Shown in pieces: positions 8,850 to 58,272 of a stretch of 64,000 nt of DNA. Numbering within the stretch: position 1 is the stretch's first letter; every line of letters starts with the position of its first letter. A program made the position numbers and the translations under genes. Under the pieces are notes generated by a model. The model was not told where the DNA came from, ran no database searches, and saw only the letters and a list, made by a program, of their open reading frames with translations. Source of the stretch: Squalus acanthias (taxonomy: Eukaryota); contig CM059427.1 in the NCBI GenBank assembly GCA_030390025.1, forward strand, positions 186,806,001 to 186,870,000. The letters run 5' to 3'.

Positions 8850-8937
8850 ATGAGGCTACGATTTTTCTGCAACAAAATGCCAGCTGGTTTGATGTTCAGT
8901 TTCTTTGTGTTTCTACTTCCGTCTGTTTTCACACAAA
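8850..8937 (+). CDS. Signal peptide exon [29 protein letters not shown]
   Basis: Acceptor tttcttacag ends 8827; ATG at 8850; hydrophobic core; phase-1 donor gtaagt at 8938. Confidence 0.8.
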
Positions 8938-26900: not shown

Positions 26901-29900
26901 GCCCTGTGCAGCATCAGGTGGGTGAGGAGAAGGTTGGCGCTCCTGTTGTTGCTGCTGCTGTTTTGCCTGGTTCTGCTGCTGCCGCGGCTGCTCTTTCTCC
27001 TAATCTGAGGACCAGGATGACAGGGTATAAATGGTTCCCATGCTGCTGGTAGATATGTCAGTTGAGGAATAGAAGTTATAAGCGCTCAATCAATTTGGGG
27101 AGAGGGTTTTTCCAGGAGGTCACAGTGGAGATGGATCTCAGCTTCACCACTTACAAGATCAGTAGATCTGCAAAAAGTTTTCCAAGACCTGAAAAACAAA
27201 GTTGTGTCATCTGTAAGTGAGCCTTGTTGCGAGCTCTGTTTTGATGCTGGAGCTGCAGCTGTCAAGAAGTCAGCCACTTGGTGAACCCGGTACAATCAGC
27301 TGGAGTGGTTTGGGAACGGCGTGGAACACGCAGAAAATGCGGAAAAATCAAAAACTGCTGTTAAAATAGGCTTATCCAGGCAGTTAACAAACTTGGTGGT
27401 GGGACTGATCTGGACTCTGGGAGCCTGCATTTGGCAAAGTGGCGTGGAGGCGGGTTGACGGCGGGATCGGACCCTGCCATCAATCAAAGCGATTTTACCC
27501 CTGACTCACCTCCAAACCCGCCCTCTGAGCGCCGGCAAAATCGCGGCCTCTGGGCTAGTCTTGCTGAGAAAATGTGAAGGCTTTAGCAGAAAGAGAGAAA
27601 AATAAAGAATGAGTACAGGTATAAAATCTGTGAAAAATGTTAAATACAGAAGAGACAGATGTTCACTGTGAAAAAACTACAGGTTGCCACCAACTGAAAC
27701 AACAGCGACCTTGCTGTTAAAGTGGGCCAGGCCCACGGAGCAGACGCGTGTCGATTTTACATGGGGGAGGTGAGCACTGGAGGTAGAATTTTGCCAAAAC
27801 TCATGAAATTCAGCATGGGATTTTCTTTGAATAATTATTCCATGTAAATAAGGATGGCACTTGCCTGAAGGAACCATATTTAAAACATCGCAAAATTGTA
27901 CAACCTGCAGCCGCCACCAGCAGGACTCCATGTCGCTGGCCCAGCCTCCGAATATTGGGCCTGTGATGTCATGGCGTCATCCATGGGACAAAAAACACAA
28001 CTTGTTAAAAATCATAAAGTTTTAATTTTTTATAAATTTCTGTTTTATTTTGTGATTTGAACTCACCCAAGCTGTACAATTTTTAAACAGTTCATAGCTT
28101 TGACAAATGAAGTTGTGATGATCAAAATACAAAGTATTTTTATATAATTGTGCCTGGTAATTATTCTGGCTTTTCTCTGTTCCTCAGCAACCAGAAAATT
28201 CTAACACGTTGTTCTCTGTCTCTGTATTGCAGATTTATATGGGAAGCGTTACACACTTTATCGATCAGGCACAGATCACAGTGAACTCGACCTGATTTGC
28301 TATTATGCTTCTTCTTACAACACTGCTGCATGGACCTGGAGGTCACGTCATCTTCAAAATCAGGAGAAAGAAATAGCATCTGCTTCGATATCTCAGCTCA
28401 TCAATGTAGACAGGACCTACTTTGGGAGTCGACTGGTGCCCACAGAGACAAAGTTTAATGGCAAGAAGTTCAGTGTGAGGATTGTCCCTGTGCTGTTTGA
28501 AGATGCAGGAGTTTACACATGTTCTCTGGGACCACATAAAATGATGACCATTAAACTAATCACAGTTAAAGGTAGGAGACAGAATGCTGCCGTTGTTTTC
28601 AATGATCAAGTTATTGTTTAAAATCTAAATGATTTTCTTGTTTCCGCAGTCACAGCTGGACCATCTGATGCAATGACTGAGGGAGACACCGTTACCCTGA
28701 CCTGCTCTGTCTCTGATGTCACTGAATCAATGAGAGTTGTTTGGATCAGTCGTGATGGCAAAACTGTTGGAGAAAAAACATTGAATGGACAGAATGGGGA
28801 AGAGAAATCATTGAGACTGATTATTCCGAAAGCTGACAGAGGCAAAGGGAACTGGATATGCGCTTTGTTTCATCAAAACAGGCCGCGGGTTTTAGTCCCA
28901 TACTATCTGGAGCCCAGAGGTAAGTGACTCAGGGTTTGCTCTTTATATTTATAATCTCGATAGAAAATTCTTATCACTTATTGTTCTTGTTGCCAGAAGT
29001 AGCCCCTCCTTTATATCCTGTGTGTGAGGCTCCACAGTGGGGCAGAGCCTCAGAAAATCTACCCTGAGATAAATACTGTGGCTACAAGGGCAGGTCAGAT
29101 GCTGGGGATTCTGCGATGAGTGACTCACCTCCTGACTCCCCAAAGCCTTTCCACCAACTACAAAGCACAAGTCAAGAGTGTAATGGAATCCTCTCCACTT
29201 GCCTGGATGAGTGCAGCTCCAACAGCACTCAAGAAGCAAAGCTTCAAATTCAGAATTCCCATGTGGGCTCCCTGTACACCAACCCTGTCCTGCAACATCA
29301 CCTGCTCTCTACATCCTGTTAAATAAAGTGAATTCTCAACAACACTCAAGAAGCTCAACATCACCCGGGACAAAGCAATCCGCTTTATTGGCAGCCCCTC
29401 CACCAGCTCCACCACCGGCGCAACGTGACTGTAGTGGGGACCATTTACAAGATGCACTGCTGCAAATCACCAAGGCTTCTTCACCAGCACCTCCCAAACA
29501 CCCAAACTCTACCAACTAGAAGGACAAGGGCAGCAGGTGCTTGGGAACACCACCACCTCCAAGTTTCCCTTCAAGTCACACACAATCCTGACTTGGGAAT
29601 ATATCACCATTCCCTCATTGTCGCTGGGTCAAAATCCCGGAACTCCCTACCTAACAACACTGTGGGAATATCTTCACCACACGGACTGCACAGGTTCAAG
29701 AAGGCGGCTCAACACCACCTTCTCAAGGGCAATTAGGGATGGGCAATAAATGCTGGCCCTGCCAGCAACGTCCACATCCCGTGAATGAAAAAAAAAACTC
29801 AGCACAGCCTGGGATTGAGCTCGGAACGTACCTGGTCTGTGTCTCAACTACACTCTTGGTAAACAGTCTGAGACAGGGCATGTTTTTTTTGACAGCAGAG

Positions 29901-32900
29901 TGGTACAGAAGCTGTTTCGATTGGTTTTCTGACCCAGAATCAATCAGAATACTGAGGCAGAATGTTAAAAAGAAATCACAGCAAAAAGTCATTCTCAGCT
30001 GCAAACATTACAATTGAAAGTCTCCACTATTCAGACTCAGAGAAACTCTTCTCTGCCTGTCTCAGCTCATCCTGGAAACATCGGAGCCTCATCACTCTCA
30101 TTCTAACTGAGGGCTCGTGCATTGTGAGCGCAAGAGCAGTAAACTCGAGGCTGCAGAGCCACTGGCCCGTATTATAATATATGTAAATTAGCTCATTTGG
30201 GAACTGCACCGGTAGATCATGGGAAGAGACAAAGGGCTCGATTTTGCCAGGCCCGAGGAGGCGGGAATGGAGGCGTGTGGGGTGTTAAAATTGCAAACAA
30301 TGGTGGGCGGGCCCGACCCCGCCTCCATCCCGCCTCCGAGCAATTTTCCCAAATGCGTGGTTTCTGATCCCGTCTCCGTCCCACCTCCAAGAGGTGGGAT
30401 AGGCCATTAAGGCCCTTAACAACCACTTAATTGCCTCTATAATCCCATTTTGAGAGGCCTTTCTGATTTTAAGACTTTTCCGACGTGATGCACGCCTCCT
30501 CTGAAACACGACGGTGAACCCTGGCGGGAGCACACTTGGATTGCTGACTATCAGCTGCAGGTCCACTATTAAGAAGGAGATTTTATCAATCATCATTCTG
30601 GGGGAACTTTTAGCAGTCATAACCATTGTTGTGGAACTTTGGAGCCTGGAGTAGTAGAACCAGTAGTAGTAGTGGTGGTGGTGGTGGTGGTGGTGAAAAA
30701 TTGTGGGAGCAGACTTCGGTCTCCTGCTGCTCATTTTGCCTCCAGGTCCCTCTCACAGCAAAGGCCAAAAGCTTTCCAGTCTTTGCAGACCTTAAATGCA
30801 GCAGCAAAGATGACATCATCAGAGGCGACTTTCAGACTGAAAAAACTAATTGGGTCATGGGTTCCCACATGCTGGAACTCAATTGCCCAATTAGGGGAAA
30901 ATCGAATAATTCTCCCACAACCAATTGAAGTCGGGTGGCTAACACGAAAAGTGAATGACACGACCCCTGCCCACCCCAATGACAAAATCGAGCCCAAAAT
31001 GTCCCAGGGGATTCAGGAGCATTGATTTTAACGGGAAAAACAAAGGAAACAAGCTTCTTCCCCACTTTGATCTAAAAAAAGTTACACTGCGAGTGCGGAA
31101 TTGCTAAATTTAGTCAGTGAGCACTTGAGGTCCCCCTCAGGAACAAATCATGTGCAGAATTCTGTAAGCTGCAACTGAAAAAAGCAGAGACAATGCCACC
31201 CTGGAGCCAAGCCGAACATCCACATATGTGAGTTTGTGAACATGCAGTGTGCAGATAACTTGTGTTGGCAGCTTGCTCGATGTGCATTTAGATGTGCAAT
31301 GTTAATGGGCATTTGGAAAGTGGGTGAAAAGCTGCCAGATATCTTTGCAATTTCCCACCTTCATGCTCCATCAAGCTTGCAGTGAAGTACTGCATTGTAA
31401 AAGTAAGATTGCAAAAGGAGGCAAAGTGTGAGCAGGTTTATCTTAGCAACGCTTGGGAGATCAGCAAATGTCTCCCTCATCTACTCCTCGATTGCTAAGC
31501 AGTGTGTAAGATGGGGGAGAGGAGGGAGCAGAGGAGGCAGAGGCTGCCTTGATTTTGGACAAAAAAGTCTTTCAGGATTGGAGGCGGGTCGGGAATGAAA
31601 GTTGAAATAACTTGGAGCTGGTTGGGAACCCGCCGTCATCCTGCCTCTACGCACCTTTCCCTCAGCCACGTTTGCCAGCGCGGCAGCGACCCTAACGGCA
31701 GAGGCAGCCCAGCTAATTTAGATGATTATTAGGACTTGTCGAACCCTTAATTGTCTTTTTAACCCGACCTTTCAAATTTCCCTGGATGACCACGGGAATC
31801 ACGCAGCTCAGGAATCACCTCTGTGAACCTGAGCCGGAAGTTCAGTGGCCATTGATCCAGCTCATTAGTGCACAGCATGGAAAGCACAATAATTACTCCC
31901 ACCTGAAACCTGCTTACTTTGCTAAGGCAGGTGCTGTTGCTGACTGCATTGTCAGCACAGATTTAGCTTTCTAGAGGTTGCAAGTGTTTTCAACAAAGTT
32001 GGGATCCACTGTCACCTCATTGGTAGAACCTATCACACCATTGACAGATTGCTTCTGTCATCTCCACTGACCTGCCATCTATTACATAAGCATGGGTGCC
32101 ATTTATACTGTCTCACCTTGGTCCTGAGAATAGGATCACGATGAGCCCCAACACCAGCAGCACCAGGCACACCAGCAGCACCAACAATCACACCAGCAAC
32201 CTTCCCCTCACCAACCTGATGCTGCATAGGACAGAGGGCATCAGAGCTGCAATACGCCGGAGACGATACCCACAACACAGGGTATACAGGCAGAGGATGA
32301 GCTTCCTCAACATAACTGAGCAGCAGTGCCAAAGGAGGCTCAAGCTATGGCGCCAGGTCATCGCAGACATTTGCAGATTGCTGGAGCAAAACCTGCAGCC
32401 CAGAGGACCTGGTGGACACACCTTACCAGTGGCTGTCAAAGTCACCAGCGTCCTCAACTTCTTCACCTCAGGCTCCTTCAGGGATCTGCAGCAGACATTT
32501 GCGGCATCTCACAGTTGGCCGCCCACAGATGCATCACACACATCACCGATGCCCTTTTTACAATTCAGAGAATTATATCAACTTTGCCACTGATGAAGCC
32601 AGTGTTACTGAGTGGGTGCTCGGCTTTGCCACTCTGGCCGGCTTCCCACGGGTGCAGGGCATCATCGACTGCACACATGTGGCCATCAGGGCACCCCATC
32701 AACACCCAGGAATGTTTGTGAACCGCAAGGGCTTCCACTCCCTCAATATGCAGCTCATCTCCAATCATAGGAAGATCATCATGCATGTGTGCGCCAAATT
32801 GCCTGGCAGCTGCCATGACTCTTTTGTCCTGCGCCAGTCCACCCTCCCTCAGCTCTTCGCTGCTCTAAAAAGACTTTCCAGCTGGCTGCTTGGAGACAAG

Positions 32901-35900
32901 GGCTATCCACTGAAGACGTGGCTCATGACACCCTTGAGGAGGCCAAGTTCTGAGGCCCAGGAGAGATATAATGAAAGACACAGTTCCACCAGCTGTGTCA
33001 TAGAGCAGACAATGGGCATGCTGAAAATGCACTTCAGATGCCTTGACAGATCTGGAGGAGCCCTTCCGCATGCACCAGCCAGGGTCTCCCGAATCATCGT
33101 GATCTGCTGCGCCCCGCACAACATAGCGCAGCATGAGGATTAGCGCTGCATGAGGAGTAAGGCACTGAGCGCTCAGCCTCTTCAGAGGAGGAGGAGGAGG
33201 AGGACGTACTTGCAGTCCAGATCCCACCATCACCCGAGCACATTGCTGCTCGGGAGGCCAGGGATAGTCTCATCATTTCCAGATTTACTTAACTTTACAC
33301 AGTACACCCATATGGCTGCCATATGCTGCACCAGGTTCCCAACACCCAACACCAACACCATAAAGCATCCCTACAATGACCAAGCCATTCCTTTCACACT
33401 GACCCCCATTGCTGGAGGTAACGTTATGTCTCACCATTCACTCCAACTCACTAAGCCACTTCCAAAGTTACAGACAGGTTTCGTCATGACCGGAAAGTGG
33501 TGAAAATAATAATTTTTTTCTGTGACATCAGATTAGCGGAAACTTCACACAGTTATTAAAACACCCAAGTGCTTACCCTTGTGAATCTCCTTGTGTGTAA
33601 TCTTTCATTACGCGTGCTTCTATGAGGTGCTACCCCTAAAGCTTCAGCAGAGGTAGAGGCAGGCTGCTCACTTCTCTGCTGTGACTGCACAGACACTTTT
33701 GGCAGATGTCCTCTAGGTCGAGGAGCCTGCGATGGCCCCAGCGAAGTCTGCTCCTCCTGCGACTGTGCAGGGGCAGACTTGGCCATCGCGATCCCAGGAG
33801 GCATGTGGGGCTCTGACTGAGGGGGAGGCAACATGGGAGAAGTACGAGCGCTTTGAGTGGAGCCCCCACTTCCATGTCCCCTCTCACCATCATCCCTCTC
33901 ATGAGCCACCCACACATCCCTGCCAGCAAGGAGATGGACAGCAGGTTGATAAAAGCAGCTGGTTGTATCGAAATATATATTTCCTTCCTCTTCCTTATCT
34001 ATCTTGGTCACATCGTGCGCAGGCACTGGGTTCAACTTCCAGATGTTTGTTGAGGACCCCCAGCTCTCCCTCTCCACCATTTCCCATAACCCCCACGACT
34101 ACCTTTGGTCTTCAGCCTTCAGCCACAGTCTGAAATTACCACTAAATATCTCCACCTCTCCATTTCTCCGCGCCCCTTTAAAAACATTCTCCAAACCCTT
34201 TTTTTTCAATGTTTAGTCATATCTCCTAACTTTCACATCATTGCTTGTTGTCTTTTGATCCTTTTACCTCTTTCCCCCTCTGTGTAAACAGTCATGGAAC
34301 GTGTTCTTCATCAAAAGTGCTAGAAATATAAGCTTTTGTTAAACCTTTGAGGGCTAAGAAACTACCTGAGAAATAATGATCCATTATTGTAAGTGTATCT
34401 ATAGGAAAGTGATTTTTTTCTTTACAACTGGGTGTTTATGTGTTGTGTCACTTCTGAAATGAATTACAACTAACAACTTACTGAAAACAAATTGTCTGCA
34501 GTATTAATAATTACACAGATCGGATTGAGAAGTTGCTGTCTGATTTTAAAATGTTGGTTCTCCTTTCTTGCAGGAAGCCAGAATTGTATTGATTTTTTCC
34601 ATCAGGAAGGCAACTTTGCATTGAAAGGCCCGGACAATCCTGGAAATGGCTCCATTGTCTGGGAATGGAGACCACACTCAGGGCAACAAACTACAAAGCA
34701 ATTGGGAACTTTCCACCGAGAAGATCAGCAGTGGGCCGTACAATGGAGCGAGGAGTACAATAATATACCAGGAATTTCTCAGAGGATACATGAGGACTGG
34801 GGTACCCTTAATCTGAGAATCAGAAACCCCACCTTTGAACTTGCGGGATTGTTCACCTGGACTCAGACACAGCCCAGTAAGAAAATCCTGAAACAGTATG
34901 AAGTATTTGGGATCAAAGGTAAGTAGCACAACAAATGGAAAGGATTCAATCATATGATTTTTTTGTGAGTAAATCCACAAATATTCTGAACAGAATGTTG
35001 GGATGATGTCCTGATCCTCCAGTTCTATCACTCAGCCCAGAATGAATCTCTCATTAAAAGCAGCCAGGTGGGTAAAATTCCTCTGTTCATTAGAACTAGT
35101 GGATGCACTAAGGGCTAGTAATTTTGATAGTTAGCACTAGCATGTTGTTGTAATTTTTGTCCATCCTTCTAAAATTCCTGAGACAATGACCTTGGAGGAG
35201 GATGGAGCGGGTGGCGATGGTGTGGAATTCGTGGCGAGGGCCGAAGACGATGGCTTCAGTCTCCCAAATATTTAACTGGAGGAAATTGTGGCTCATTCTA
35301 GACTAGGTGTTAGACAAGTGATCTGACAGCACAGAGGCAGTGGAGGGATTCATAGAATCATAGGATCATAGAATTTTACAGCACAGAAGGCGGCCATTCA
35401 TCCCATCTTGTCCGTGCCGGACGACAAAGGCTATCCAGCCTAATCCCACTTTCCAGCACTTGGTCCATATCCTTGTAGTTTACAGCACTTCAACTGCACA
35501 TCCAAGTACTTTTTAAATGTGGTGAGGGTTTCTGCCTCTACCACCCTTTCAGGCAGTGAGTTCCGGATCCCACCACCCTCTGGGTGAAAAAATTTCTCCT
35601 CAAATCCCCTCTAAACCTTCCACCAATTACTTTAATTCTCTGGCCCCTGGTTATCGACCCCTCTGCTTAGGGAAATAGGTCCTTCCTATCCACTCTATCT
35701 AGGCCAGTCATAATTTTATACACCTCAATTAGGTCTCCCCTCAGCATCCTCTGTTCCAAAGAAAATAACCCTAGCCTATACAATCTTTCCTCATAGCTAA
35801 AATTCCTCAGCCCAGGCATCATCCTCGTAATTCTCCGCTGCACCCTCTCTACTGCAATCACATATTTTCTGTAATGTGGTGACCAGAACTGTACGCAGTA

Positions 35901-38900
35901 TTCCAGCTGCGGCCTAACCAGTACTTTATACAGTTCAAGCATAACCTATATGCCTCGGCTGATAAAGGCAAGTATCCCGTATGCCTTCTTAACCACCTTA
36001 TCTACCTGTCTTGCTACCTTCAGGGATCTGTGGACATGCACTCCAAGGTCCCTCTGATCTTCTGCACTTCTCAGTGTCCTATCATTTATTGTGTATTTCC
36101 TTGCCTTCTTAGCCCTCCCCAGATGAATTACCTCAAACTTCACTGGATTGAATTCCATTTGCCACTGTTCTGCCCACCTGACCAATCCATTGATATCTTC
36201 CTGCAGTCTACAGCCTTCTTCTTCATTATCAACCACATGGCCAATTTTTGTATCATCTGCAAACTTCTTCATCATACTTCCTACATTCAAGTCCAAATCA
36301 TTGATATATACCACAAACAGCAAAGGACCCAGTACTGAGACATGCGGAACCCTACTGCAAACAGCCTTCCAGTCACAAAAACACCCTTCGACCATTACCC
36401 TTTGTTTCCTACCTCTGAGCCGATTTTGGATCCAACTTGCCACTTAGCCTTAGATCCCATGGGCTTTTACTTCCATGACCAGTCTGCCATGTGGGACCTT
36501 ATCAAAAGCCTTGCTAAAATCCATATAGACTACATCAAATGCACTAACCTCATTGACCCTCCTTGTTACTTCCTCAAAAAATTCAATCAAGTTAGTCAGA
36601 CACGACCTTCCCTTAACAAATCCATGCTGACTGTTCCTGATTAATCCGTGTCTTTCTAAATGAAGATTTATCCTGTCCTTCAGAATTTTTTCAAATAATT
36701 TTCCTACCACTGAGGTTAGGCTAACTGGCCTGTAATAACTCTGTCTATCCCTTTCTCCCTTTTTAAACAACGTACCACATTAGCAGTCCTCCAGTCCTCT
36801 GGCACCACACCTGTAGACAGAGAGGATTGGAAAATGATGGTCAGAGCCTCTGCTATTTCCTCTCTTACTTCTCTTAACAGTCTGGGATACATTTCATCTA
36901 GGACTGGGGATTTATCCAATTTCAAAAATGATAAACCTCTTAATACTTCCTCTTTCACTATGTTTATTTCATCTAATATTTCACACTCCTCCTCCCTGAT
37001 TGCAATTTCTGCATCGACCCTCTCTTTTGTGAAAACAGACACAAAGTATTCATTAAGAATCACACCCTTGTCTTCTGCATCCACACACAGGTTACCTTTA
37101 TGATCCCTTCTTTATGGGAGGGTTTAAACTAAAATGGCAGGGGGTTGGGAACCTGTGCAGGGAGACAGAGGAAAGGGAAGCAAGGATAGAAGCAAAAGAC
37201 AGGAAGGAGAAAAGCAAAAGTGGAAGTCAGAGAAATCAAGGGTGCAAATCAAACATGGCCACAGTAAACAATAATTCTAAAAGATCTAAGAGTGATAAAA
37301 AAACAAGCCTGAAGGCTTTGTGTCTTAATGCGAGGTGCATTCATAATAAGGTGGATGAATTAGCTGTGCAAATAGATGTAAACGGATATGATATAATTGG
37401 GATTACGGAGACATGGCTCCAGGGTGACCAAGGCTGGGAATTCAACATCCAGGTGTATTCAATATTCAGGAAGGACAGGCAAAAAGGAAAAGGAGGTGGG
37501 ATAGCATTGCTGGTTAAAGAGGAGATTAACACAATAGTAAGGAAGGATATTAGCTCTGATGATGTGAAATCTGTATGGGTAGAGCTGAGAAATACCAAGG
37601 AGCAGAAAACGTTAGTGGGAGTTGCATACAGACCCCCAAACAGTAATGCTGAGGCTGGGGATGGCATTAAATGGGAAATTAGAGATGCGTGCAATAAGGG
37701 CTCAGCAGTTATCATGAGTGACTTTAATCTACATATAGATTGGGCTAACCAAATTAGTAACAATACTGTGGAAGAGGAATTCCTAGAGTGTATACGGGAT
37801 GGTTTACTGGACCAATATGTCAGGGAACCAACTAGAGATCAAGTCATCTTGGACTGGGTATTATGTAATGAGAAAGGATTAATTAGCAATCTTGTTGTGC
37901 GAGGCCCCTTGGGGAGGAGCGATCATAATATGCTAGAATTCTTCATTAAGATGGAGTGTGAAATAGTAGTTGACTCAGAGACTAGGATACTGAATTTAAA
38001 TAAAGGAAACTACGATGGTATGAGGCACGAGTTGGCTAGGATGGATTGGGGAATGTTACTTAAAGGGTTGACGGTGGATAGGCAATGGCAAACATTTAAA
38101 GATCGCATGGATGAACTACAGAATTTGTTCATCCCTGTTTGGCATAAAAATAAAACAAAAAAGGTGACTCAACCGTGGCTAACAAGGGAAATTAGGGATA
38201 GCATAAGATCCAAGGAGAGGACATATAAATTGGCCAGAAAAAGCAGCAAACCTGAGGATTGGGAGCAGTTTAGGATTCAGCAAAGGTGGACAAAGGGATT
38301 AATTAAGAGGGGGAAAATAGAGTATAAGAGTAAGCTTTCAGGGAACATAAAAACTGACTGTAAAAGCTTCTATAGATATATGAAGAGAAAAAGATTGGTG
38401 AAGTCAAGTGTAGGTCCCTTGCAGTCAGAATCAGGAGAATTTATAATGGGGAACAAAGAAATGGCTAACCAATTAAATGCATACTTTGGTTCTGTCTTCA
38501 CAAAGGAGATCATCATTAAACTCCCAGAGATGTCGGAGAACATAGGGTCTAATGAGAGGGAGGAACTGAATGAAATCAGTATTTGTAGGGAAATGCTGTT
38601 AGGGAAATTGACGGGATTGAAGGCCGATAAATCCCCAGGGACCTGATAATCTACATCCTAGGGTACTTAAGGAAGTGGCCCTAGAAATAATAGATGCATT
38701 GCTGGTCATCTTCCAAAATTCTATCGACTCTGGAACAGTTCCCATGGATTGGAGGGCAGCTAATGTAACCCCACTATTTAAAAAAGGTAGTAGAGAGAAA
38801 ATGGAGTATTATAGATCGGTAAGCCTAACATCGGTAGTGGGGAAAATGATAGAGTCCATCATAAAAGATGAAATAGCAGAGCACTTGGAAAACAGTGACA

Positions 38901-41900
38901 GGATCGGACAAAGTCAACATGGATTTACAAAAGGTAAATCATGCTTGACTAATCTACTGGAATCTTTTGAGGATGTAACTGGTAGAATAGATAAGGAAGA
39001 ACCAGTGGATGTGGTGTATTTGGACTTTCAGAAGGCTTTCGATAAGGTCCCGCATAAGAGATCAGCGTGCAAAGTTAAAGCACATGGGATTGGGGGTAAG
39101 GTACTGACTTGGATAGAAAACTGTTTGGCAGACAGGAAGCAAAGAGTTGGAATAAATGGGTCTTTTTCCGAGTGGGAGGCAGTGACTAGTGGGGTACTGC
39201 AGGGATCGGTGCTAGGACCCCAGATATTCACAATATATATTATTGATCTAGATGAGGGAACTAGATGTAATATCTCCAAGAGGGGCGAAAAACATTAATA
39301 GGAGTGGTATATAGGCCTCCAAATAGTAAAATAGAGGTTGGGGAGGGCATCACGAGGGAAATTAGAGAAGCGTGCAATAAGAGCACAGCTGTCATCATAG
39401 GTGACTTTAACTTGCATATAGATTGGAATAGCCTAATCAGTAAAAATAATGAGGAGGAGGAATTCCTTGAGTGTTTAAGGGATGGTTATCTGGATCAATA
39501 TGTCGAGGAACCAACTCGGGAACAGGCTATATTGGACTGGGTACTGTGCAATGAGAAGGGACTAATTAGTAATCTTGTTGTACGGGGACCCTTGGGTCAG
39601 AGCGATCATAACATGATCGATTTCTCACTCGAAATGGAGAGCGAAGAAATTGACTCAGATACTAAGGTCCTGAATTTAAACAAGGGGAATTATGATGCCA
39701 TTAGACGGGAACTGAGCAGGTCTGATTGGACAACGTTCCTGGGAGGACTGGAGGTAGATAAACAATGGCAAGCATTTAAAGGTAGAATGACAAAATTGCA
39801 AAAATTGTTTATACCAATCTGGCATAAAAGGAAATCTAAAAAGGTGACTCAACCGTGGATAACAGGGGAAATTAGAGACAGCATAAAATCCAAAGATAGG
39901 GCGTATAAATTAGCCAAAAAAAGCGCCAGAGCGGAAGATTGGGAACAGTTTAAGATAGAGCAAAGGAGGACAAAGGGCTTAATCAAGAGGGGCAAAATAG
40001 CTTACGAAAGCAAGCTGGCGGAAAATATAAAAACTAACTCCAAAAGCTTTTATAAGTATATCAAGAGGAAAAGACTGGTGAAAACCAAAGTTGGCCCATT
40101 GCAGTCAGATACGGGGGAATATATAACGGGAAATAAAGAAATGGCAGACCAACTAAATGCATACTTTGGGTCAGTCTTTACGAAGGAAGACACAAAAAAC
40201 CTCCCTGGGATATCGGGAAAAATAGGGACATTTGCAAAGGAGGAACTGACGCAAGTCAATATCTCTAAGGATATGGTGTTAAGGAAGCTAAAGGGATTGA
40301 AGGCGGACAAATCCCCAGGGCCTGATAACATGCATCCTAGGGTGCTGAAGGAGGTGGCCCTAGAGATAGCGGATGCACTAAGTATGATTTTTCAGAATTC
40401 ATTAGACTCGGGAACAGTGCCCATGGATTGGAGGGTAGCTAACGTTACCCCACTATTCAAAAAGGGGGGTAGGGAAAAAGCAGGTAATTACAGACCTGTA
40501 AGCCTTACATCAGTTGTGGGCAAAATGCTGGAGTCCATCATTAAGGATGAAATAGCGGAGCACTTAGCAAATGGGGACAGGATAGGACAGAGTCAACATG
40601 GATTTACAAAGGGTAAATCGTGCTTGACTAATCTATTGGAATTTTTTGAGGGAGTAACTGGTAAAATAGATGGGGGAGAGCCAGTAGATGTGGTGTACCT
40701 GGACTTCCAAAAGGCCTTCGATAAGGTCCCACATAAAAGATTAGCAGGGAAAATTGAAGCTCATGGGATAAAGGGGAAAGTATTGACGTGGATAGAGAAC
40801 TGGCTGTCAGATAGAAAACAGAGAGTTGGAATAAACGGCTCATTTTCTGAATGGCTGGCAGTAACAAGTGGGGTACCACAGGGATCTGTCCTGGGTCCCC
40901 AGCTGTTCACAATTTACATTAATGACCTGGATCAGGGAGTCGGATGCAGCATTTCCAAATTTGCAGACGACACTAAACTAGGAGGAGGGGTGGGCTCAGA
41001 GGAGGAGACCAGGAAGCTCCAGAGCGATTTGGACAGACTGGGTGATTGGGCGGATAAATGGCAGATGCACTATAATGTGGACAAGTGCGAAGTTATCCAC
41101 CTTGGGTGCAGGAACGGGAGGGCAAATTATTATTTAAATGGCAATAAATTGGGAGAGGGGGAAGTACAGAGAGACCTGGGTGTTCTTGTACACCAGTCAC
41201 TGAAGGCGAGCATGCAGGTGCAACAGGCGATCAAGAAGGCAAACGGTATGCTGGCCTTCATAGCAAAAGGGTTGGAATACAGGAACAGGGATACCTTGCT
41301 GCAGCTGTACAGGGCACTGGTGAGACCACACCTCGAGTACTGTGTACAGTTTTGGTCGCCTCATCTGAGGAAAGATGTTCTTGCCATGGAGGGGGTGCAG
41401 CGGCGATTCACCAGGCTGATACCAGGAATGGCGGGATTGACCTATGAGGAGAGACTATGTAGTTTAGGGATGTACACACTGGAGTTTAGAAGATTGAGAG
41501 GGGACCTCATAGAAGTGTATAAAATTCTGACAGGTCTAGACAGACTCGATGCAGAAGGAATGTTTCCCTTGGCGGGTGAGAACAGAACTAGAGGACATAA
41601 TTTAAGGATAAGGGCTAAACCATTTAGGACAGAAATGAGGGGGAATTTCTTCACTCAGAGGGTGGTGAACCTGTGGAACTCATTGCCACAGAGGGCAGTG
41701 TACGCCAGCTCATTAAATATATTTAAGAGGGAATTAGATATATTTCTACAGGCAAAAGGGGTTAAGGGTTACGGAGAGAAGGCGGGGACGGGATACTGAA
41801 TTGGAGGATCAGCCATGATCTCATTAAATGGCGGAGCAGGCTCGAAGGGCCGGATGGCCTACTCCTGCTCCTATCTTCTATGTATCTATGTATCTATGTT

Positions 41901-44900
41901 TGCAGATGACACAAAGCTTGGTGGGCGTGTGTGCTGTGAGGAAGATGCAGAGAAACTCCAGTATGATTTGGACAGGTTGGGAGATTTGGCAGATGCAGTG
42001 TAATGTGGATAAATGCGAGGTTATCCATTTTAGTGGCAAAAACAAGAAGGCAGATTATGATCTGAACGGCAATAGTTTGGGAAAAGGGAAAGTGCAACGA
42101 GACCTGGGTGTCCTTGTGCACCAGTCGCTGAAGGTAAGCATGCAGGTGCAGCAGGCGGTTAAGAAGGCAAATGGTATGTTGGTCTTTATAGCGAGAGGAT
42201 TCGAGTACAGGAGCAAGAAAGTCTTGCTGCAGTTGTACGGGGCCTTGGTGAGACCACACCTTGAGTATTGTGTGCAATTTTGGTCGCCTTATCTGAGGAA
42301 GGATGTTCTTGCCATGGAGGGAGTGAGCGAAGATTCACCAGACTGATACCTGGGATGGCAGGAATGACGTATGAAGAGAGATTGGGTTGATTAGGCTTAT
42401 ATTCACTAGAGTTTAGAAGAATGAGAGGGGATCTCATTGAAACTTATAAAATTCTAACAGGACTAGACAGACTAGATGCAGGAAGGTTATTCCCGATGGC
42501 AGGGGAGTCCAGAACCAGGGGTCACAGTCTAAGGATAAGGGGTAAGCCATTTAGGACAGAGATGAGGAGGAATTTCTTCACCCAGAGAGTGGTGAACCTG
42601 TGGAATTCTCTACAACAGAAGGCAGTTGAGGCCAATTCATTAAATATGTTCAAGAAGGTGTTAGATATATTTCCTAAGGTAAGGGGATCAAGGGATATGG
42701 GGAGAAAGCAGGGACAGGGTACTGAATTTGGATAATCAGCCATGATCGCATTGAATGGCGGAGCAGGCTCGAGGGGCCGAATGGCCTACTCCTGCTTTAT
42801 CTTCTATGTTCTATGTTTCTATGTTTACTTTAATTATCCTCTTGCTCTTAATGTATTTATAAAACATCTTTGGGTTTTCCTTGATTTTACTTGCCAATAT
42901 GTTTTCATGCCCTCTCTTAGCTTTCCTAATTTCCTTTTTAATTTCACCCCTGCACTCTCTATACTCCTCTAGGTTTTCTGCAGTATTGAGCCCTCGGTAT
43001 CTGTCATAAGCTTCCTTTTTTTTCTTTATCCTAACCTGTATGCCCCTTGACATCCAGGGAGCTCTAGATTTGTTTGTCCCACCCTTTTTCTTTAAGGGAA
43101 CATACTTGCTCTGAATCCTCACTATCTCCTCCTTGAATGCTTCCCACTGCTCTGACACTGATTTACCTTCAAGTTTCTGTCTCCAGTCCACTTTGGATAA
43201 ATCACATCTCAGCTTAGTAAAATGAGCTTTTCCCCAGTTGGGAACTTTTATTCCTGGTCTATCCTTGTCCTTTTCCATATCTATGCTAAATCTAACTGAA
43301 TTATGATCACTACCACCAAAATGCTCTCCTATTGATACCCTTTCCACCTGCCCAGCTTCATTCCCTAAAACTAGGTCCAGAACCATTCCCTAAAACTAGG
43401 TCCAGAACCACCCCCTTCTTGTTGGGCTTGCTACGTACTGACTAATAAAATTCTCCTGAATGCATTTTAAGAATTCTGCTCCCTCTATACCTTTTACACT
43501 AATTTTATCCCAGTTAATATTAGGAAAGTTGAAATCCCCTACTATTACTGCCCTATATTTGCACGTCTCAGAAATTGGCCGACATATTTGCTCTTCTATC
43601 CCTCTCTGACTGTTTGAGGGTCTATAGTACAATCGTAGAAGTGTGATTGCCCCTTTTTTGCTTTTCAGTTACCCATATGGGCTCGTTGGATGATCCTTCT
43701 AAGATATCATCCCTCCTCATAGCTGTAATTGTTTCTTTAATCAATATTACAACCCCCCCTCCTTTTTTATCCGCCTCTCTAACTCGTCTGAATACCCTGT
43801 AACCAGAAATGTTGAGCTGCCATTCCTGCCCTTCTATCAACCATGTCTCAGTAATAGCTATAATATCATACTCCCACGTGTCTATCTGTGCCCTCAGTTA
43901 ATCTGCTTTATTCCCTAGACTCCTTGTGTTGACTTCCTCACTTCTGCCTATTCTTGAAGCAGGTGCTAGGCTATTAACATATTCAAATAAGGGGCCTAAC
44001 ACCTGCTTCTGCTCCCTCTTGCAAATTTGGCTTGCATCTGTGGCAATCAGCACCAGCAATGTTTACTCCCGGGAAAACAAACATTAACCTGTGCCAAATG
44101 AAAAAAAGGTAAGCACTTACCATTAGCATCTCCGACCTCACTACCGACTCCGACCTCCATGTCCTCTCTGATCTCCCCCCAATGAGGCCCCGACCTCCAG
44201 GTCCCCCCGATGGCCCTGACCTCCCCCCGATGTTGTCCCCGAGTCCCGATCACCTCCCACTGATCCTGGCCCCGTCTCCCGACCTACCTCAGAGTCCTTG
44301 CTGGGTGTTCAGACACTCAGCATGTTCAATGCTGGGCTGAATGCCACAATAATGATAATCAGCCGGCAGAAACAAGTCCCGGTGCTGCCTGCGATCTTTT
44401 TACGGGTGTGAGCAAACCTCGCCCCGTGGAGCCACTCCCGTTTACGGCCTTATCGGTTTTCTAGGCCAAAGATTCTATGTTGCCGAGGAGCAGCATGTAG
44501 ATGAGGAAGATGAGGGAGCCAAGGGGGACAAGTGGACATTATCTGTGAAATGTTCATATGAAGGGATAATTACAAGTCCTAGCCCTTTCGGACTACCCCA
44601 GATCAGGCGTATACGCCAGACGTTTACCCTCAACTAAAGTTAGCGGTAGCTGGATCCTATAAGACGCTTAATTGTGTCTAAAGGTCAGACTACCTCTCCC
44701 TAAAGGAAAGAAATGGTCTAAAGATGTTACCGTACTCCAGATAGTATTTTTAATAAGTTTAACTAGACTGTAACCTTCTGGAAATTATAAGGGTCCGGAA
44801 TAGCCCCCAGAATTCTGCAACTCCTTTGAGTGTACAGAATTTGAGTTCGCAAGATGATACAGAAATACTCTTTGAGACTATTCTAAAAATATATAGATTT

Positions 44901-47900
44901 ATTACAGAACCGACATTCAGTTAACATTTATTTTGGCAATCGCAACTTTAATTGTTCAAAATACAAATAGCTTACATTATCTTATCAGAGATCCTTATTC
45001 TCAAATCTTAACTTCGTTACATTTCCACACTTCTACTTAATTCTTAATCCAGAATATCCATCAAAATCAAATAAGAGTACCTTGATCACCCGAGACCCAA
45101 AAGTTGTAAACTTACAGAGAATATCTGTAAAGTTGAGAAATGCTTGCCTTCTCAGCTACTTCTGACTTTTCTGTTTGAAAAGGTCTATTTTTATATCTTT
45201 TTTGGGTGGCTTATCCTTTGAAGTTTTCCTATTTATGTAAGCTGTAGGGGTGGTTGTTTGTGTCAGCTTCACCTCTGACTTCTGAGCAGTTCGAATCGCT
45301 CCCACTCCCTTGGTTCAAGACCTTGGACTTATTTGGGGGTTGTGACAAAAAGTGCAGCAGACAACTGGTTTTGATGCAAGAACTTTGAACTTTATTCAAG
45401 AAAATAAAAACACAACACAAACACTCTTAACACTCTTAACACTCTAAAGTGGAGAACACTTCGGTACAAGCGAGGGAAATAACATTAGAAGAATACTTCG
45501 CCCCTCCCAATCCCACTTCACTAGCTAGGTTGGACTCTGGAGAACCAGGGATAATGCTCACCAAATGAATCCTTGACAGTTGAGAGTTAGGGTTTAGAGT
45601 CTTTTGAGTAAAATGTTTCGTAAGGCCCTTGTTGCCGCGAGGTGTCTGATGGTCACTGAGGCGGTCGCTCTGGTTTCTTCTTACGTGTCGGCCTGCTTGT
45701 TCCTTGCTGCCTGCTTGTTTCGTTGTAACTGTGTACGGTTGTACTCGAGAACTCCTTTCTGTTGTAACTGTGTAACTGCTTGTCTCCTTGAACTGCCGTG
45801 TAACTCTACTGGAGAACTCGAACTCCTGAGAACTGCTGAACTCCTTAACTTGTTGAACTCCCTTCAACAGCTTCTTGCTGAACTCCCTGAACAGCTTCTT
45901 GTTTAACTGCTTGCTGAATTCCTTGCTGCTGTGTAACTCTACTGGAGAACTCGAACTTGAACTGTTGTAACTGCTGAACTGACTTCTTGCATTGTAAGAT
46001 TTTGGAGGGCTCGTCAACAGTAACTGGTTTGTAAATGTGTGAAGTGGTTTTCGGGACGGCGCCATCCTGTTGATCTGTTGCTTAATTGTAGCTGATTATC
46101 CTTATGTTTTGGGTTTCTTGGTTGGGCCTGTAATTTCTATCGGGTAAGCCGAAGTAATTTGAAATATGCATGTTTTGATGGGGCCTGTGTTTTGGGTGGG
46201 ACTGCCTTCTCCCAGGGTCTATTGTCAAAATGTTAATATCTGCTGGGGTTTTGAGTGAGGTCATCCTGGTTCCCCAGACAGTGTAATTAACTGCAATAGC
46301 CAAACTGCTTTTACAGAGGTCGAACCCACCTCCTTGTCCCTTTACAGGCCCAGACATAGTTTTAAAATGCCAAAACTTGGTTTTTGGTCTTAAATTCCTT
46401 ATGTTAGGCCCAAATGCATTTTTATCACTCTGAGGTAGTTCCAAAGTCCTTTTTCCTTAGGTTTTGGGGATCTGTAAATTTTGGAAACCTTACAAAGCCA
46501 ATTGTATCAAGTCATTCTTTGCTGACTTTGTTCTATTCTTTATTGATATCTCTGTTGAATGCTTTTAGACTTGTGTCCTGTTTAGGTGTTTCCAAAACCA
46601 TCATAAACACAATGACAGCAATGGTTTCTGTTTGATGCAATTCTTATCGAAGTCTTTCTATTGAATTTCTAATATTACTTTAACTGGTTATTTTCAGACA
46701 TTGTGACTCCGTGGTATTCCAAGTTCAATACAAGAACAATGTAATTGCTTGGTACATCTATTGAAGTAATATTTTCAAAGTCGTCTTGTTTGTGTACCTT
46801 TTACAATTTGTAAATTAAAAACACTTCTCTGGTATCTTCATGCATTTCTAATTTACTTCAATTGGTTTTTATCAGACCTTAGGACTCCATATTTCAAGCT
46901 TAACATTAAAACTATTTGTTCAGCAGGCATTTCTTTCACTTGATGTCATTTCTTCAATGCTTTCTGTAGGTATCATATTTACAATATGTAAATTGAAAAC
47001 ACTTTAACTCAAGTGTTTACTTGTTTTCTAGCTATCTCTATTGGTTGCATATTTAATCATGTTTCCTTTCTTTAAGTTTAACATAAAACTATTTTACGAT
47101 AGGTATTTCTTACTTGATGTCATTCTTTCAAAGGCACTTGTTTTTTTTAATGTTCTGTGTACCTGTTCGACGTGTTAGATTATAACACTTTACTTGGGTC
47201 ATTCCATTGTTTTGATTCCAATGTCCAGACGCTCTGGAAGCAAACCTTTGCTTTATCAATAGGGCTTGTTTCTTGGTCAATAAACCATTCCCATTTCAAA
47301 GCCTGTGGTGTTTTACAACTTGTTAATAACTGATCTTTATCTCAGAAGCCTGTATTGTGCCTACAGCCTATGTCGCCGAGGCTTTCAGACTTTTAAACCC
47401 AGTATGTCTTTTATTAATAATTTCAGAAATCTGTTCGTAGTATCGTGTATTTTTCTGAATCCTGGCTACTCCTTCACACATAGTCAGCACTAAGCATGGC
47501 TGGTCAGCATTTGCCTGACTGTGTCTGTTTGTAGAAAAATAAAATTCTGAATGCAATAGTTGAGAAAGTTTATGGAAAGCTATACTACATGTCATTGATC
47601 TGTTTTTACAGTTGAGACAGATTCACAGAGGCCTGTAAGGGGCAGTGACATCACCCTCAGTTGTACCATCTCCAGACTCTCAGATACAGTCAGTCTTCAC
47701 TGGAAACCAAGAGACTCATCTCAGCAGAACAGGAGGAACAACACTGATGGGATCCATCTGAATAACACGGTCTATCTGATAGTCAGACACGTTGGAGCAG
47801 AAAATCAGAATTTGTACACATGGGAAGTGCAGGAAAATGACTCCATTGTTCTCACTGGAAACACAAATGTTGATGTGGATCAGAGTAAGTCCAGAGCTAG

Positions 47901-50900
47901 CTTGCAGTAGGTGTTAAATAGTTACTGATATAAAACTGTTACACACAAAGTACAGCGAGCACAGGCACCACTGTGGGCTTTTACTGCAGAATGTGGTCCT
48001 TGTTTTTGCCCTGGAACATGGGTGTAAATATAAAATGGTGACATTAAGAGCTGATGTGAACAACCAGGTGAACTCACTGGATTCATTTCGATTCACATGT
48101 ATGAATCAAAAAGAATAAAATCCATCAATCTATAAAAGCAACTGCCATTCCAGTCTATATTGGAATAGAGAAATACAAACAAATTAAATGAACACAACAC
48201 AGGTGTTACAAGATTCGGGTCTTTCCTGAGACATTCTCTTGGGTACAGTGTGCTGCTCACTCACAAAACTGGTCTGAGTGTCTTACATTTAGGGATGTTC
48301 TCATACTGCCCAATATCTGACTATATGACAGCATAAGCTAAGGGTGTAAGAATAAGCCCCCCTTGTGACCTGAACTGGATATTTGTGTCTATCGCACGTC
48401 TACATCATTAGTCATTTTGAAAGTTTCCAAAAAAACCCTTGGTGAGACAAGGCCAGTAATGAATTGTTAAACTGCTTTATTTCACAGCAAGTGAACATAC
48501 AGAATAACAGTTATGATCAGATTCACTTAGTTCAATCAGTCTCACCTGTCTTTGTGTAGCAGTTCTAAATAATGAACATGCTACACTGCTCCAAACCAAT
48601 GGGTTAAATTCTTGACTTAACCAACTTAACTCCTCACGATGTGGTCTCCTCTTCATTTGGGAGACCAAACGCAGATTGGGTGACCGCTTTGTGGAACACT
48701 TCCGTTCAGTCCGTAAGCGTGACCCTGAGCTTCCGGTCGCCTGTCACTTTAATTCTCCGCTCCACTCCCACTCTGATCTCTCTGTCCTCGGCCTCTTACA
48801 CTGTTCCAACGAAGCTCAACGTAAGCTCGAGGAACAGCACCTCATCTTTCGATTAGGCACTTTACAGCCTTCTGGACTTAACATTGAGTTCAACAATTTC
48901 AGACTATAACCTCGGCCACTATTTTTTTTCCTTTGTTTTCTCACATGGCAGCTGTTGATGATTCTTCCATCGCCATTTACACCTCATCGAGAGTCATCCT
49001 TTGTTTCTTAACTTGTCCCATTACCTCTCCTTTTGCCTTGCACCATCATCCCTTTTGTCTTTTAATCTCTTCCGCCCTCCAGCCTATCACAGACATTCCC
49101 TTTTGTTCTTTCCTCCCTGTCCCTGTCCCTGCTCCACACTTGCTTAAAAATCTGTTACTTCTCTCACATTTTCCAGTTCTAACGAAGGGTCCTCGATGGG
49201 AAACGTTAGTTCTGTTTCTCTCTGTCGATGCTGTCTGAGCTGCTGAGTGTTTCCAGCATTTTCTGTTGTTATTTCAGATTTCCAGCATCCACAGTATTTT
49301 GCTATTAACTCCTAACTACCCCCCTACATGTTAAACCTCTGAGCCTGTCCCAAGCTTGCCCTTGCAACTTTCTGTTTCCAGCCAGACTGACATTGCACCA
49401 TTTGATTGAGCTCCCTGCCTGCCCATGTCTCTCTCTCTATATTACCGTCTTCTGTTAACAACCCGAGGGAACCAAAGATGCCGATCACAATGGGTATGAG
49501 GCATTTATTGATAATCGATTGCTGAGGCAGTTTAACAAATTGATTATCTACAGTCCACGGGGAAACAACATCACTTTGACGGGGGCCATGTTTGGGGCAG
49601 ATGGACTTTGTAGCCCAACCCGGCGTTTAAACAATAGGCAGCCTGGGCCGGCAGCCAGTGTATCCGGGTCCCAGCCGATTTCCCTGTCCCAATGCTGCAC
49701 TCCCAGCTGGCTTATGCCAGGAGGGCGCTGAATGGCCCTGTGGGAATTCAGAACATCTGTATCTCAGCAGCTATATAAATCTAACACCTTGTTTCCTGTC
49801 TCTCTATTTCAGATTTACACAACAAGAGTTACACACTTTATCGGTCAGACACAGATCACAGTGAACTCTCCCTGATTTGTGAAGCTGAATCTGAGATCAT
49901 TAAAACTAAATGGACTTGGAGGTCACGTCATTTTCAGAATCAAGAGAAAGAAATAGCTTCTACTTTCAGATCTAAGCCTATCGATGTAAACAGGACCTAC
50001 TTTGGGAGTCGACTGGTGCCCACAGTGGGAAATCTTAATGGCAAGAACTTCAGTGTGAGGATTGTCCCCGTACTGTTTGAAGATGCCGGAGTTTACACAT
50101 GTTCTCTGGGGTTATTGAATTATGTGACCATTAAACTAATCACAGTTAAAGGTAGGAGACAGAATGCTGCCATTGTTTTCAATGATAAAGTTATTGTTTA
50201 AAATCTAAATGATTTTCTTGTTTCCACAGTCACAGCTGAACCATCTGATGCAGTGACTGAGGGAGACACCGTTACCCTGACCTGCTCTGTCTCTGATGTC
50301 ACTGAATCAATGAGACTTGTTTGGATCAGTAGTGATGGCAAAACTGTTGAAGAGAAAACTTTTAAGGACCAGAAGCAGGAAGAGGATTTGTTACGACTAA
50401 TTATTCAGAAAGCCAATAGAGACAGAAGGAACTGGACATGTGTTTTGTTTCATCAAAACACGCCCAGCGTTTTAATTCCATATTATCTGAAGGTTAACAG
50501 TAAGTGTCTCAGGTTTTTCTCTTTGTAACCTCCATAGAAAGTTCATCATCATAGAATCACAGAAATTTACAGCACAGAAGGAGGCCATACGGCCCATCTT
50601 GTCCGTGCCGACCGACAAAGAGCTATCTACCCTAATACCACTTTCCAGCACTTGGTCCGTAGCCTTGTAGGTTATGGCATTCCAAGTAATTTTTAAACGT
50701 GATGAGGGTCTCTACCTCTACCGCTCTGTCAGGCAGTGAGTTCCAGACCCTCACCACCCTCTGGGTGAAAAGATTTCTCCTCAAATCCCCTCTAAACCTC
50801 TGACCAATTACTTTAAATCTATGCCCCCTGGTTATTGACCCCTCTGCTAAGGGAAATAGGTCCTTCCTATCCACTCTATCTAGGCCCCTCATAATTTTAT

Positions 50901-57579: not shown

Positions 57580-58272
57580 TACTGATCTGAGATCATAGAG
57601 TGACTGACACAGCACAGAAGGAGGCCATTCAGCCCATCGTGCCTGTGCTCATCGAGATCTGCAGTCTCTGGAAACTAGATCGACCCAACTTGGGAAACTT
57701 TAGAAATAGATTTGTAGTTTTATTCTGGAGTTATTTTGTGGTAATTTTTTTATGTATCTAGTTTAGTTTATATCCCGAAGTGTCCATTTCAATAGTTCCC
57801 AGTCTCAGTATCTGTTATTTTACTTTACAAGTCCTAACTTGCCAGGTCGCTATAAGAAATTCTAATGGGTGGAAAATCGTGCGAACGTTGGGCTGAATTC
57901 CTGATCTCCACTCGTGGCCGGTGAGGCTCCAGGCTGGGGACACAGTTTTATAACTGTAGGGACTGACGGTGACCCAGTGGTACAGCCGTGTGTGGAGCTT
58001 GAAGTGTTGGGACGTGGATTTGTGACTGTGGGTCCCCAGTGAGTGATCTCAGCTGGACTCTCTCTGCAGAGGAGCTGAATGGAGCTGAGCTGCTACAAAT
58101 GAGAAGGAATGAAACTCGGCTCAGTAAATATGGGCGTCTCCCCTGCACCTCCCAGCACCTGTTCACACAACGAGATCGCGGAATCTCCGGAGAAGGTTGT
58201 CTCCATGCTCCCACCCAGGGAATTGTTTGCAGCAGAGCGCGACTAAAAGATTAACAGAAAAGAAACAGCATG

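Follow-up and report, generated by a model that had tools for sequence, protein, structure and literature searches.

An eight-domain immunoglobulin-type gene of Squalus acanthias leads to a seemingly undescribed branch of paired receptors near CD4 and LAG-3

Introduction

According to the available portion of a survey of CD4 and LAG-3 (PMC10768021), one gene of each is the default in jawed vertebrates, and strands that continue through the V-C2 junctions are a trait of both. For sharks, several CD4/LAG3-like molecules were found by Venkatesh et al. (2014), as related in the accessible parts of two later papers (PMC6795676; PMC6238376). The gene described here lies in a stretch of 64,000 nucleotides of Squalus acanthias (GenBank assembly GCA_030390025.1, contig CM059427.1, positions 186,806,001 to 186,870,000 of the forward strand), which is called the window below and is numbered from its first letter. 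A sequence-only reading of the window had pointed to two V domains, D3 and D7, that diverge mainly in four loop-like patches while the adjacent introns are about 96% identical, and had put this down to diversifying selection on a ligand-binding face, to patchy gene conversion, or to both, as in germline-encoded variable immune receptors. This feature is real, if partly misread, and it seemingly leads to an undescribed branch of paired receptors near CD4 and LAG-3.

KIR and LILR are examples of paired receptors. In the accessible part of a study of the DICPs of ray-finned fish, paired receptors are defined by a tail bearing an immunoreceptor tyrosine-based inhibitory motif (ITIM) in one form versus a charged transmembrane segment in the other (bioRxiv 10.1101/2021.06.11.448072). 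DICPs are themselves clustered paired receptors with ITIM or charged-transmembrane forms, and their ectodomains (D1-D2, or D1a-D2a-D1b-D2b) arose by tandem repetition, like the unit repetition described below; however, the same part of that source reports them from teleosts, holosteans and the coelacanth and not from sharks, and the repeat unit of the shark family is made of four distinct domains. Gene conversion in paired receptors is also already known: in KLRC, Ly49 and PIR, activating and inhibitory partners have similar ectodomains that are partially homogenised by conversion (PMC3210942, available portion), and Siglec-11/16 and CEACAM are likewise described, in the part of the literature at hand, as paired receptors under gene conversion. 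The loop-versus-framework pattern of D3 and D7 is thus a known kind of evolution. In the systems covered by the available portion of that source, conversion homogenises the domains with which two separate genes bind ligand (PMC3210942), whereas in the shark gene it would have acted between two units of one gene, on the framework and at the V-C2 junction, and would have spared the loops. The new detail would be conversion between units of a single gene in which loops specific to each class have persisted from before the shark-ray split.

The history that we favour, with a probability of about 0.7, is that of an activating paired receptor in which an old duplication would have been followed by specialisation into a variable outer and a conserved inner unit, and by recurrent conversion of framework and junction between the two.

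Both V domains belong to one gene

Homolog-guided mapping placed a single intact gene in the window, on the plus strand like all of its exons, patches and tracts given below, with an open frame of 911 amino acids in 11 coding exons whose internal splice sites are all AG/GT. It holds both D3 and D7, which are two positions in one protein and not two genes. The leader exon (8850..8937; ATG and signal peptide, open frame and GT donor), located by tblastn with homologs, precedes a first unit composed of D1 (13758..14099), a V-type domain without the Cys pair and the most variable domain of the family in its C'-C''-D region, D2 (17779..18048), a C2 domain with YxC in the F strand, D3 (28233..28571), a V domain of the first-unit class, and D4 (28650..28919), a C2 domain with WxC. 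The second unit repeats this layout with D5 (34574..34918), a Cys-less V domain of a conserved class, D6 (47612..47884), a C2 domain that has no F-strand Cys, D7 (49813..50151), a V domain of the last-unit class, and D8 (50230..50499), again a C2 domain with WxC. The transmembrane exon (55498..55607), which carries a lysine in the helix and is thus of the activating type, and the last coding exon (57490..57579), which encodes a short tail without tyrosine and the stop codon, were also placed with the help of homologs. The protein is therefore ordered as leader, (V-C2-V-C2)x2, transmembrane helix with lysine and short cytoplasmic tail, each unit being a Cys-less V, a C2, a V and a C2 with WxC. 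Pfam has no family for D1 or D5, and no other host gene was recognised within the 64-kb window. The tail ends (57560-57600) about 8 codons short of that of a catshark homolog (P0060); a catshark-like ending is present in another frame, a one-base difference that may be a real variant or an assembly error.

An antigen-receptor V gene segment, in which V is split from J and rearranges, was considered and ruled out, since each V exon includes its own G strand and splices directly to C2, and since a contig skips the intron between them. This contig comes from a comparison of four sequencing runs with positions 28100-29060, in which the two runs taken by guess as RNA both cover mostly exons; one contig of such a run (X5) omits exactly the 78-nt GT..AG intron. 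Against taking this as a transcript of the window gene, spliced contigs may derive from paralogs or from related species.

Between D8 and the transmembrane exon lies a decayed, frameshifted D4-type exon fragment (51985..52272, plus strand, in a region extending to 53052 that includes copied pieces of the downstream intron), which is 84% identical to D4 and 75% to D8. This suggests an earlier arrangement in which the exon for the lysine-containing helix came after a D4-type domain, as it does in activating homologs with four domains; the gene seen today would then have arisen by rearrangement. Within the intron between D2 and D3, at 18464-18708, there is also a degenerate remnant (79% identity) that derives from the 3' half of a D6-like exon and the intron downstream of it.

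An old duplication and a class-specific loop

The D3 and D7 exons, each of 339 nt with AG/GT ends, differ at 63 nucleotides. At the protein level, 32 of 112 whole codons differ and the split first codon (D versus N in the spliced protein) adds a 33rd, in agreement with the 33 of 113 residues counted by hand in the sequence-only reading. The four patches to which that reading had assigned 25 of the differences do contain 25, in 29 codons, while the other 83 whole codons hold 7; this clustering exceeds chance, as in 20,000 shuffles the four richest windows of matching length contained at most 22 differences. The framework motif singled out as identical is so in both domains, and the 78-bp introns (28572-28649 and 50152-50229) differ at 3 positions, as had been said. 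Patch 1 (28301..28330 in D3, 49881-49910 in D7), in the BC loop, is diagnostic of the two classes and variable in length in D3 only; patch 2 (28382..28411 and 49962-49991), at the end of C' and in C'-C'', is class-diagnostic in its first two positions; patches 3 (28445..28456 and 50025-50036; DE loop) and 4 (28532..28546 and 50112-50126; FG turn and start of G) are variable in both classes.

In principle, such a pattern could also arise if the units had been duplicated within the gene only recently and the D3/D7 loops had since come under positive selection, the introns being alike because the copies are young. The clustering is significant, the patches correspond to loops, and within them the proportion of nonsynonymous sites that differ (pN, 0.538) exceeds that of synonymous sites (pS, 0.281). 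The age of the copies, however, makes this account very improbable. Two-unit ectodomains were found in 29 proteins of sharks and batoids, window protein included; with isoforms dropped beforehand (3 of them) and 5 of the 29 then set aside for incomplete domains, 24 proteins (23 homologs and the window protein; 21 for D1/D5) entered the trees and variability measures. On the trees of D1/D5 (42 rows), D2/D6 (48 rows) and residues 39-89 of D4/D8 (48 rows), the position label changes only once and each position class holds both sharks and batoids; on the tree of the D3/D7 framework, it changes twice. In sharks and rays alike, then, D1/D5, D2/D6 and most of D4/D8 group according to position; this dates the four-domain duplication to before the shark-ray split and largely refutes a young origin. 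The introns tell the same story, as the large introns of the two units have only repeats in common and identity between units is 62-83% at all six other intron flanks that can be aligned, and so does pS, at 0.4-0.46 in D1/D5 (0.415) and most of D4/D8 (0.455). The copies being old, the 96% identical intron needs a cause of its own.

The part of the original interpretation that invoked diversifying selection between D3 and D7 finds no significant support. The pN/pS ratio is 1.91 in the patches, versus 0.26 in the framework and 0.83 overall, but the excess in the patches is not significant (Fisher p=0.065) and is biased upward because the patches were picked, after the fact, for their differences. 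In addition, 15 of the 32 differences fall at alignment columns that tell the D3 class from the D7 class throughout sharks and rays, so that the contrast is largely an old, fixed one rather than a recent arms race. The residue after the B-strand Cys, for instance, is Y in 20/24 D3 and E in 23/24 D7 domains, and the second residue before the Trp is A in 21/24 D3 and T in 23/24 D7.

Instead, it is in the outer unit that paralogs and species vary most: in patch 1 among the D3 domains of paralogs and, to the greatest extent, in D1. The patch 1 loop has 10 residues in the D7 of all 24 proteins but 10-15 in D3, where it contains 3.4 tyrosines on average versus 0.4 in D7, and the contigs show length variants of 3 nt and 15 nt at or around D3 patch 1. 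The strongest contrast is that of D1 with D5, whose entropies are 2.04 and 0.72 bits, respectively, in the C'-C''-D region (columns 46-80).

Probable gene conversion around the short intron

The conserved stretch proved wider than the intron. Its first copy (28546..28763) comprises the D3 G strand, the 78-bp intron and 38 codons at the start of D4, and its second copy (50126..50343) includes the corresponding intron; the two differ at 7 of 218 bp, as compared with 63/313 upstream in D3 and 41/156 downstream in D4, and no 218-bp window had fewer than 15 mismatches in 20,000 shuffles. None of 24 four-fold degenerate sites differs in the tract, versus 11/44 outside (p=0.006); when the intron core (2/58) is added, the count is 2/82 versus 11/44 (p=1.6e-4). 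Likewise, pS is zero over the 28.5 synonymous sites of the first 38 D4/D8 codons. Given that the duplication predates the shark-ray split, the tract is best read as the footprint of a gene conversion later than the duplication, and in this respect the earlier suggestion of patchy conversion is upheld.

Comparison across species points the same way. Identity in the tract is higher between the two units of one protein (0.80) than between sharks and rays at the same position (0.75 and 0.74), while for patch 1 the relation is reversed (0.055 versus 0.23 and 0.44); the within-protein excess is not shared by D4/D8 39-89, D2/D6 or D1/D5 either. The position label changes 13 times on the tree of the tract, a tree built on only 46 conserved columns, many of whose branches are unsupported. 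One F-strand variant is confined to both domains of a horn shark protein (P0010), a proline variant is present in 4/4 horn shark D4/D8 domains, and the D8 of a sawshark protein (P0008) is a D4/D8 mosaic; such private variants shared by both units, seen in horn shark and sawshark, point together with the mosaic to repeated conversion. Finally, D3 and D7 of the window protein are identical at 68/75 framework positions, versus 51-59/75 within 8 other proteins, a modest sign of an older and wider conversion.

Several points weigh against conversion, besides the poor resolution of the tract tree. The edges of the tract were chosen after the data had been seen, and the shuffles behind the across-species comparison of identity and variability ignore relatedness. 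Low pS is also found in D2/D6 (0.22) and in the D3/D7 framework (0.20), which makes the neutral baseline uncertain. The framework identity within the window protein is little higher than when either domain is compared with its positional counterpart in other sharks (up to 66/75). Lastly, the V-C2 junction shows no significant excess of class switches (6/130 versus 8/255 junctions, p=0.57, 24 ambiguous junctions being left out), although both reciprocal products exist; the tract as a hot spot of unequal crossing-over is accordingly not supported.

Purifying selection could also keep such a tract alike, through splicing of the 78-bp intron and through the G-A strand that continues from D3 into D4 (E336-349 in the model described below), and the encoded protein is indeed conserved between sharks and rays (0.74-0.75). 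Protein constraint nonetheless does not explain the near absence of change at four-fold (0/24) and intron-core (2/58) sites, and a contig of run X1 has the intron with several indels and there are loose contig ends within it in X1 and X7, so that some copies tolerate change in the intron. Constraint in place of conversion is for these reasons improbable. Run X7 additionally shows a single 89-bp contig at 28633-28721 (intron end and D4 start) with a depth of 1096, versus 18-40 for its neighbours, and run X1 a similar depth pattern; this hints that many copies share the stretch, depth not being copy number.

Where the loops lie

The patches were placed, by secondary structure only, on a model of a four-domain sawshark homolog (P0045) predicted from a 19-sequence alignment (pLDDT 76.3, pTM 0.69), in which they correspond to the BC loop, the C'-C'' region, the DE loop and the FG turn. 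All of these loops sit at one end of a V domain, its N-terminal pole, and so can form one surface. The proposal of a single ligand-binding face fits to that extent, but in D3 and D7 the pole faces the preceding C2 domain, and the analogy with complementarity-determining regions (CDRs) is loose because the D3/D7 loops look towards that domain and because FG is a tight turn, unlike CDR3.

Given this orientation, the patches might mainly be a hinge interface to the C2 domain that comes before (D2 for D3, D6 for D7), or tolerant, relaxed loops, and not a ligand site; class differences would then be structural adjustments to different neighbours and the variability of the D3 loop would reflect relaxed constraint. 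D6 lacks the F-strand Cys that D2 keeps, the D2 and D3 classes occur together in 138/144 junctions, and patches 3 and 4 are about equally variable in both classes, all of which would fit. On the other hand, 6/144 junctions mix the classes and linkage alone explains the coupling; a tyrosine-rich loop that changes length in frame only fits a binding surface better; and the D2-D3 joint of CD4 and LAG-3 is described as a flexible hinge in the available portion of the survey (PMC10768021). A purely structural role of the patches, which would be compatible with the history favoured here, is thus possible but rather unlikely.

A family with the signature of paired receptors

All matches in the homolog searches come from cartilaginous fish, including one chimaera (68/68 in a first search, and the 120 listed of 126 in a second), and nearly all of these proteins, mostly automatic gene models, which tempers what follows, are labelled uncharacterized. 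Among the matches listed, 55 of 125 distinct proteins have an ITIM-like tail, 16 have a lysine in the transmembrane helix, and none has both. The window gene is of the lysine type, and its homologs join similar ectodomains of 4, 8, 12 or about 16 domains to ITIM-like or lysine-transmembrane ends: by sequence, this is the signature of paired receptors. The placement of the window gene in a germline-encoded family of variable immune receptors is likewise supported by the homolog searches and by the counts of tails and transmembrane helices.

Relatives extend beyond cartilaginous fish. When 1.84 billion representatives were searched by profile, 383 matched, and relatives in chimaera, bony fish and frogs were drawn from the best 150 of these. 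The 19 closer matches that were looked up comprise 2 chondrichthyan, 13 bony-fish (bichir, sturgeon, bowfin, eels, tarpon, a mormyrid and otophysans) and 3 frog proteins, frogs and several teleosts having a three-domain C2-V-C2 form; among 10 more distant ones, 7 are named CD4, CD4-like or LAG-3. Among the matches listed, none of the 30 proteins that were looked up bears the name DICP. Two relatives close to an eel member (P0148), P0126 (2139 aa) and P0132 (766 aa), have repeated units; either unit multiplication recurred in bony fish, as seems to be the case, or these gene models are fused. P0107, P0133 and P0135, from horn shark, sevengill shark and chimaera, form a second, divergent four-domain subfamily of chondrichthyans. 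P0170 and P0180, in which V-C2(WxC) units are repeated in tandem and the tail has several tyrosines (E=1.6e-33 and 2.2e-28 with the family profile), are possible relatives of the ancestral V-C2 unit.

A literature search, with most subscription papers outside its reach, found no published description of this receptor family, and the text and supplements of the CD4/LAG-3 survey, in the portion available, do not mention it (PMC10768021). Single members may have been seen before, however, since CD4/LAG3-like molecules of sharks are cited and since a nurse shark member was deposited as 'obscurin-like protein' (AGQ17915.1/V9NJF3; P0027 here). This protein belongs to the same eight-domain family, with 63% identity to D3, and with its signal peptide and membrane helix it is no obscurin, the name being a source label.

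Relationship to CD4 and LAG-3

The family resembles CD4 and LAG-3 in its V-C2-V-C2 ectodomain, present twice over in the window protein, its single exon per domain, the WxC of D4 and D8, its continuous V-C2 strands and its best structural matches. In the P0045 model, strands continue across the D1-D2 (E132-147) and D3-D4 (E336-349) junctions, so that the passage of V strand G into C2 strand A is predicted there too. Foldseek with this model returned LAG-3 and CD4 as top matches, and a second structural comparison ranked CD4 1-4 (Z 15.9-17.9, root-mean-square deviation 12-22 over 300-329 residues), the next unrelated chain having Z 13.9. Kinship in sequence covers all four domains: the family profile aligned with a CD4/LAG-3 profile in hhalign at 99.75% (E=3.4e-27, 432 columns, 17% identity), a comparison made without an unrelated immunoglobulin profile as control. 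Less favourable to this kinship, a sequence search of solved structures placed PD-L1 and JAML above LAG-3. An Atlas search gave generic immunoglobulin clusters only.

The differences are as clear. WxC is not found in strand F of both D2 and D4, as it is in CD4 and LAG-3, since D2 has YxC and D6 no F-strand Cys; D1 lacks both cysteines; and in place of a Cx(C/H) tail there are ITIM-like tails or a lysine in the transmembrane helix. The Cx(C/H) Lck motif of CD4 was not found in the window tail, which has only a membrane-proximal CC. The LAG-3 tail motif (F/Y)xxL(D/E), conserved there in a single tail exon, was considered for the FxxLE that ends the window tail and rejected, as the homologs lack the F and LE results from the one-base frame difference. 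Instead of one CD4 and one LAG-3, this family is multigene and paired, with units repeated to at least 16 domains. A D3-D4 tree of 47 rows puts 33 family rows on one side of a branch (support 100/97) opposite CD4, LAG-3 and P0170; labels of rows that were not looked up were assigned in this analysis, and the tree has no outgroup, so that it does not establish sisterhood to CD4/LAG-3. On this tree the family stands apart from LAG-3, and sequence comparisons as a whole make it a branch apart from CD4 and LAG-3, its closest named relatives, the window gene being neither of the two. Its build is that of CD4 and LAG-3, and judging by its motifs it would work like paired receptors of the KIR, LILR or DICP type.

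Proposed origin and function

In the history that we favour, the four-domain duplication, which is older than the shark-ray split, came first. The units would then have specialised, D1-D4 as a variable outer recognition part and D5-D8 as a more conserved inner stalk, while repeated ectopic conversion would have made the D3/D7 framework alike again, together with the V-C2 junction and the short intron there. The class-specific BC loop may have been kept apart by selection on each class, or by indels that block conversion. Receptors with a charged transmembrane segment couple to adaptors of the DAP12 or FcR-gamma type, and by analogy the window receptor most likely signals through such an adaptor on leukocytes, as the activating counterpart of ITIM-bearing paralogs that would see the same or a similar ligand. 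D1 would be the main contact with this ligand, probably a self or microbial surface molecule that changes fast, and the tyrosine-rich D3 BC loop could add a second contact or modulate the hinge.

More speculatively, and with the odds against it, this could be a third CD4/LAG-3-related lineage of jawed vertebrates, polygenic and paired (ITIM versus adaptor-coupled), kept in chimaeras, sharks, rays, many bony fish and frogs. It would read polymorphic class II molecules of the major histocompatibility complex (MHC), or microbial mimics of them, through the hypervariable C'-C'' face of D1, which is the MHC class II face in CD4, and through the length-variable, tyrosine-rich D3 loop, a KIR/LILR-like surveillance of class II on a CD4 scaffold.

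A polygenic, paired and sister-like family that extends from chimaera to frogs under the label 'uncharacterized' in databases would widen the CD4/LAG-3 family. It would also supply candidate natural killer or myeloid receptors for sharks, and it bears on the 2014 dispute over their 'several CD4/LAG3-like molecules'.

Other features of the window

In 25502-26999 and 32090-33269, a Myb/SANT-like frame stands beside short frames with a likeness to Harbinger-type transposases; Pfam has no family for three of the short frames. Copies of long interspersed nuclear element (LINE) retrotransposons occur in the introns and downstream of the gene (37057-41796, 61699-63999 and others), and one of them contains, at 39271-41796, an open frame of 842 codons with endonuclease and reverse transcriptase domains.

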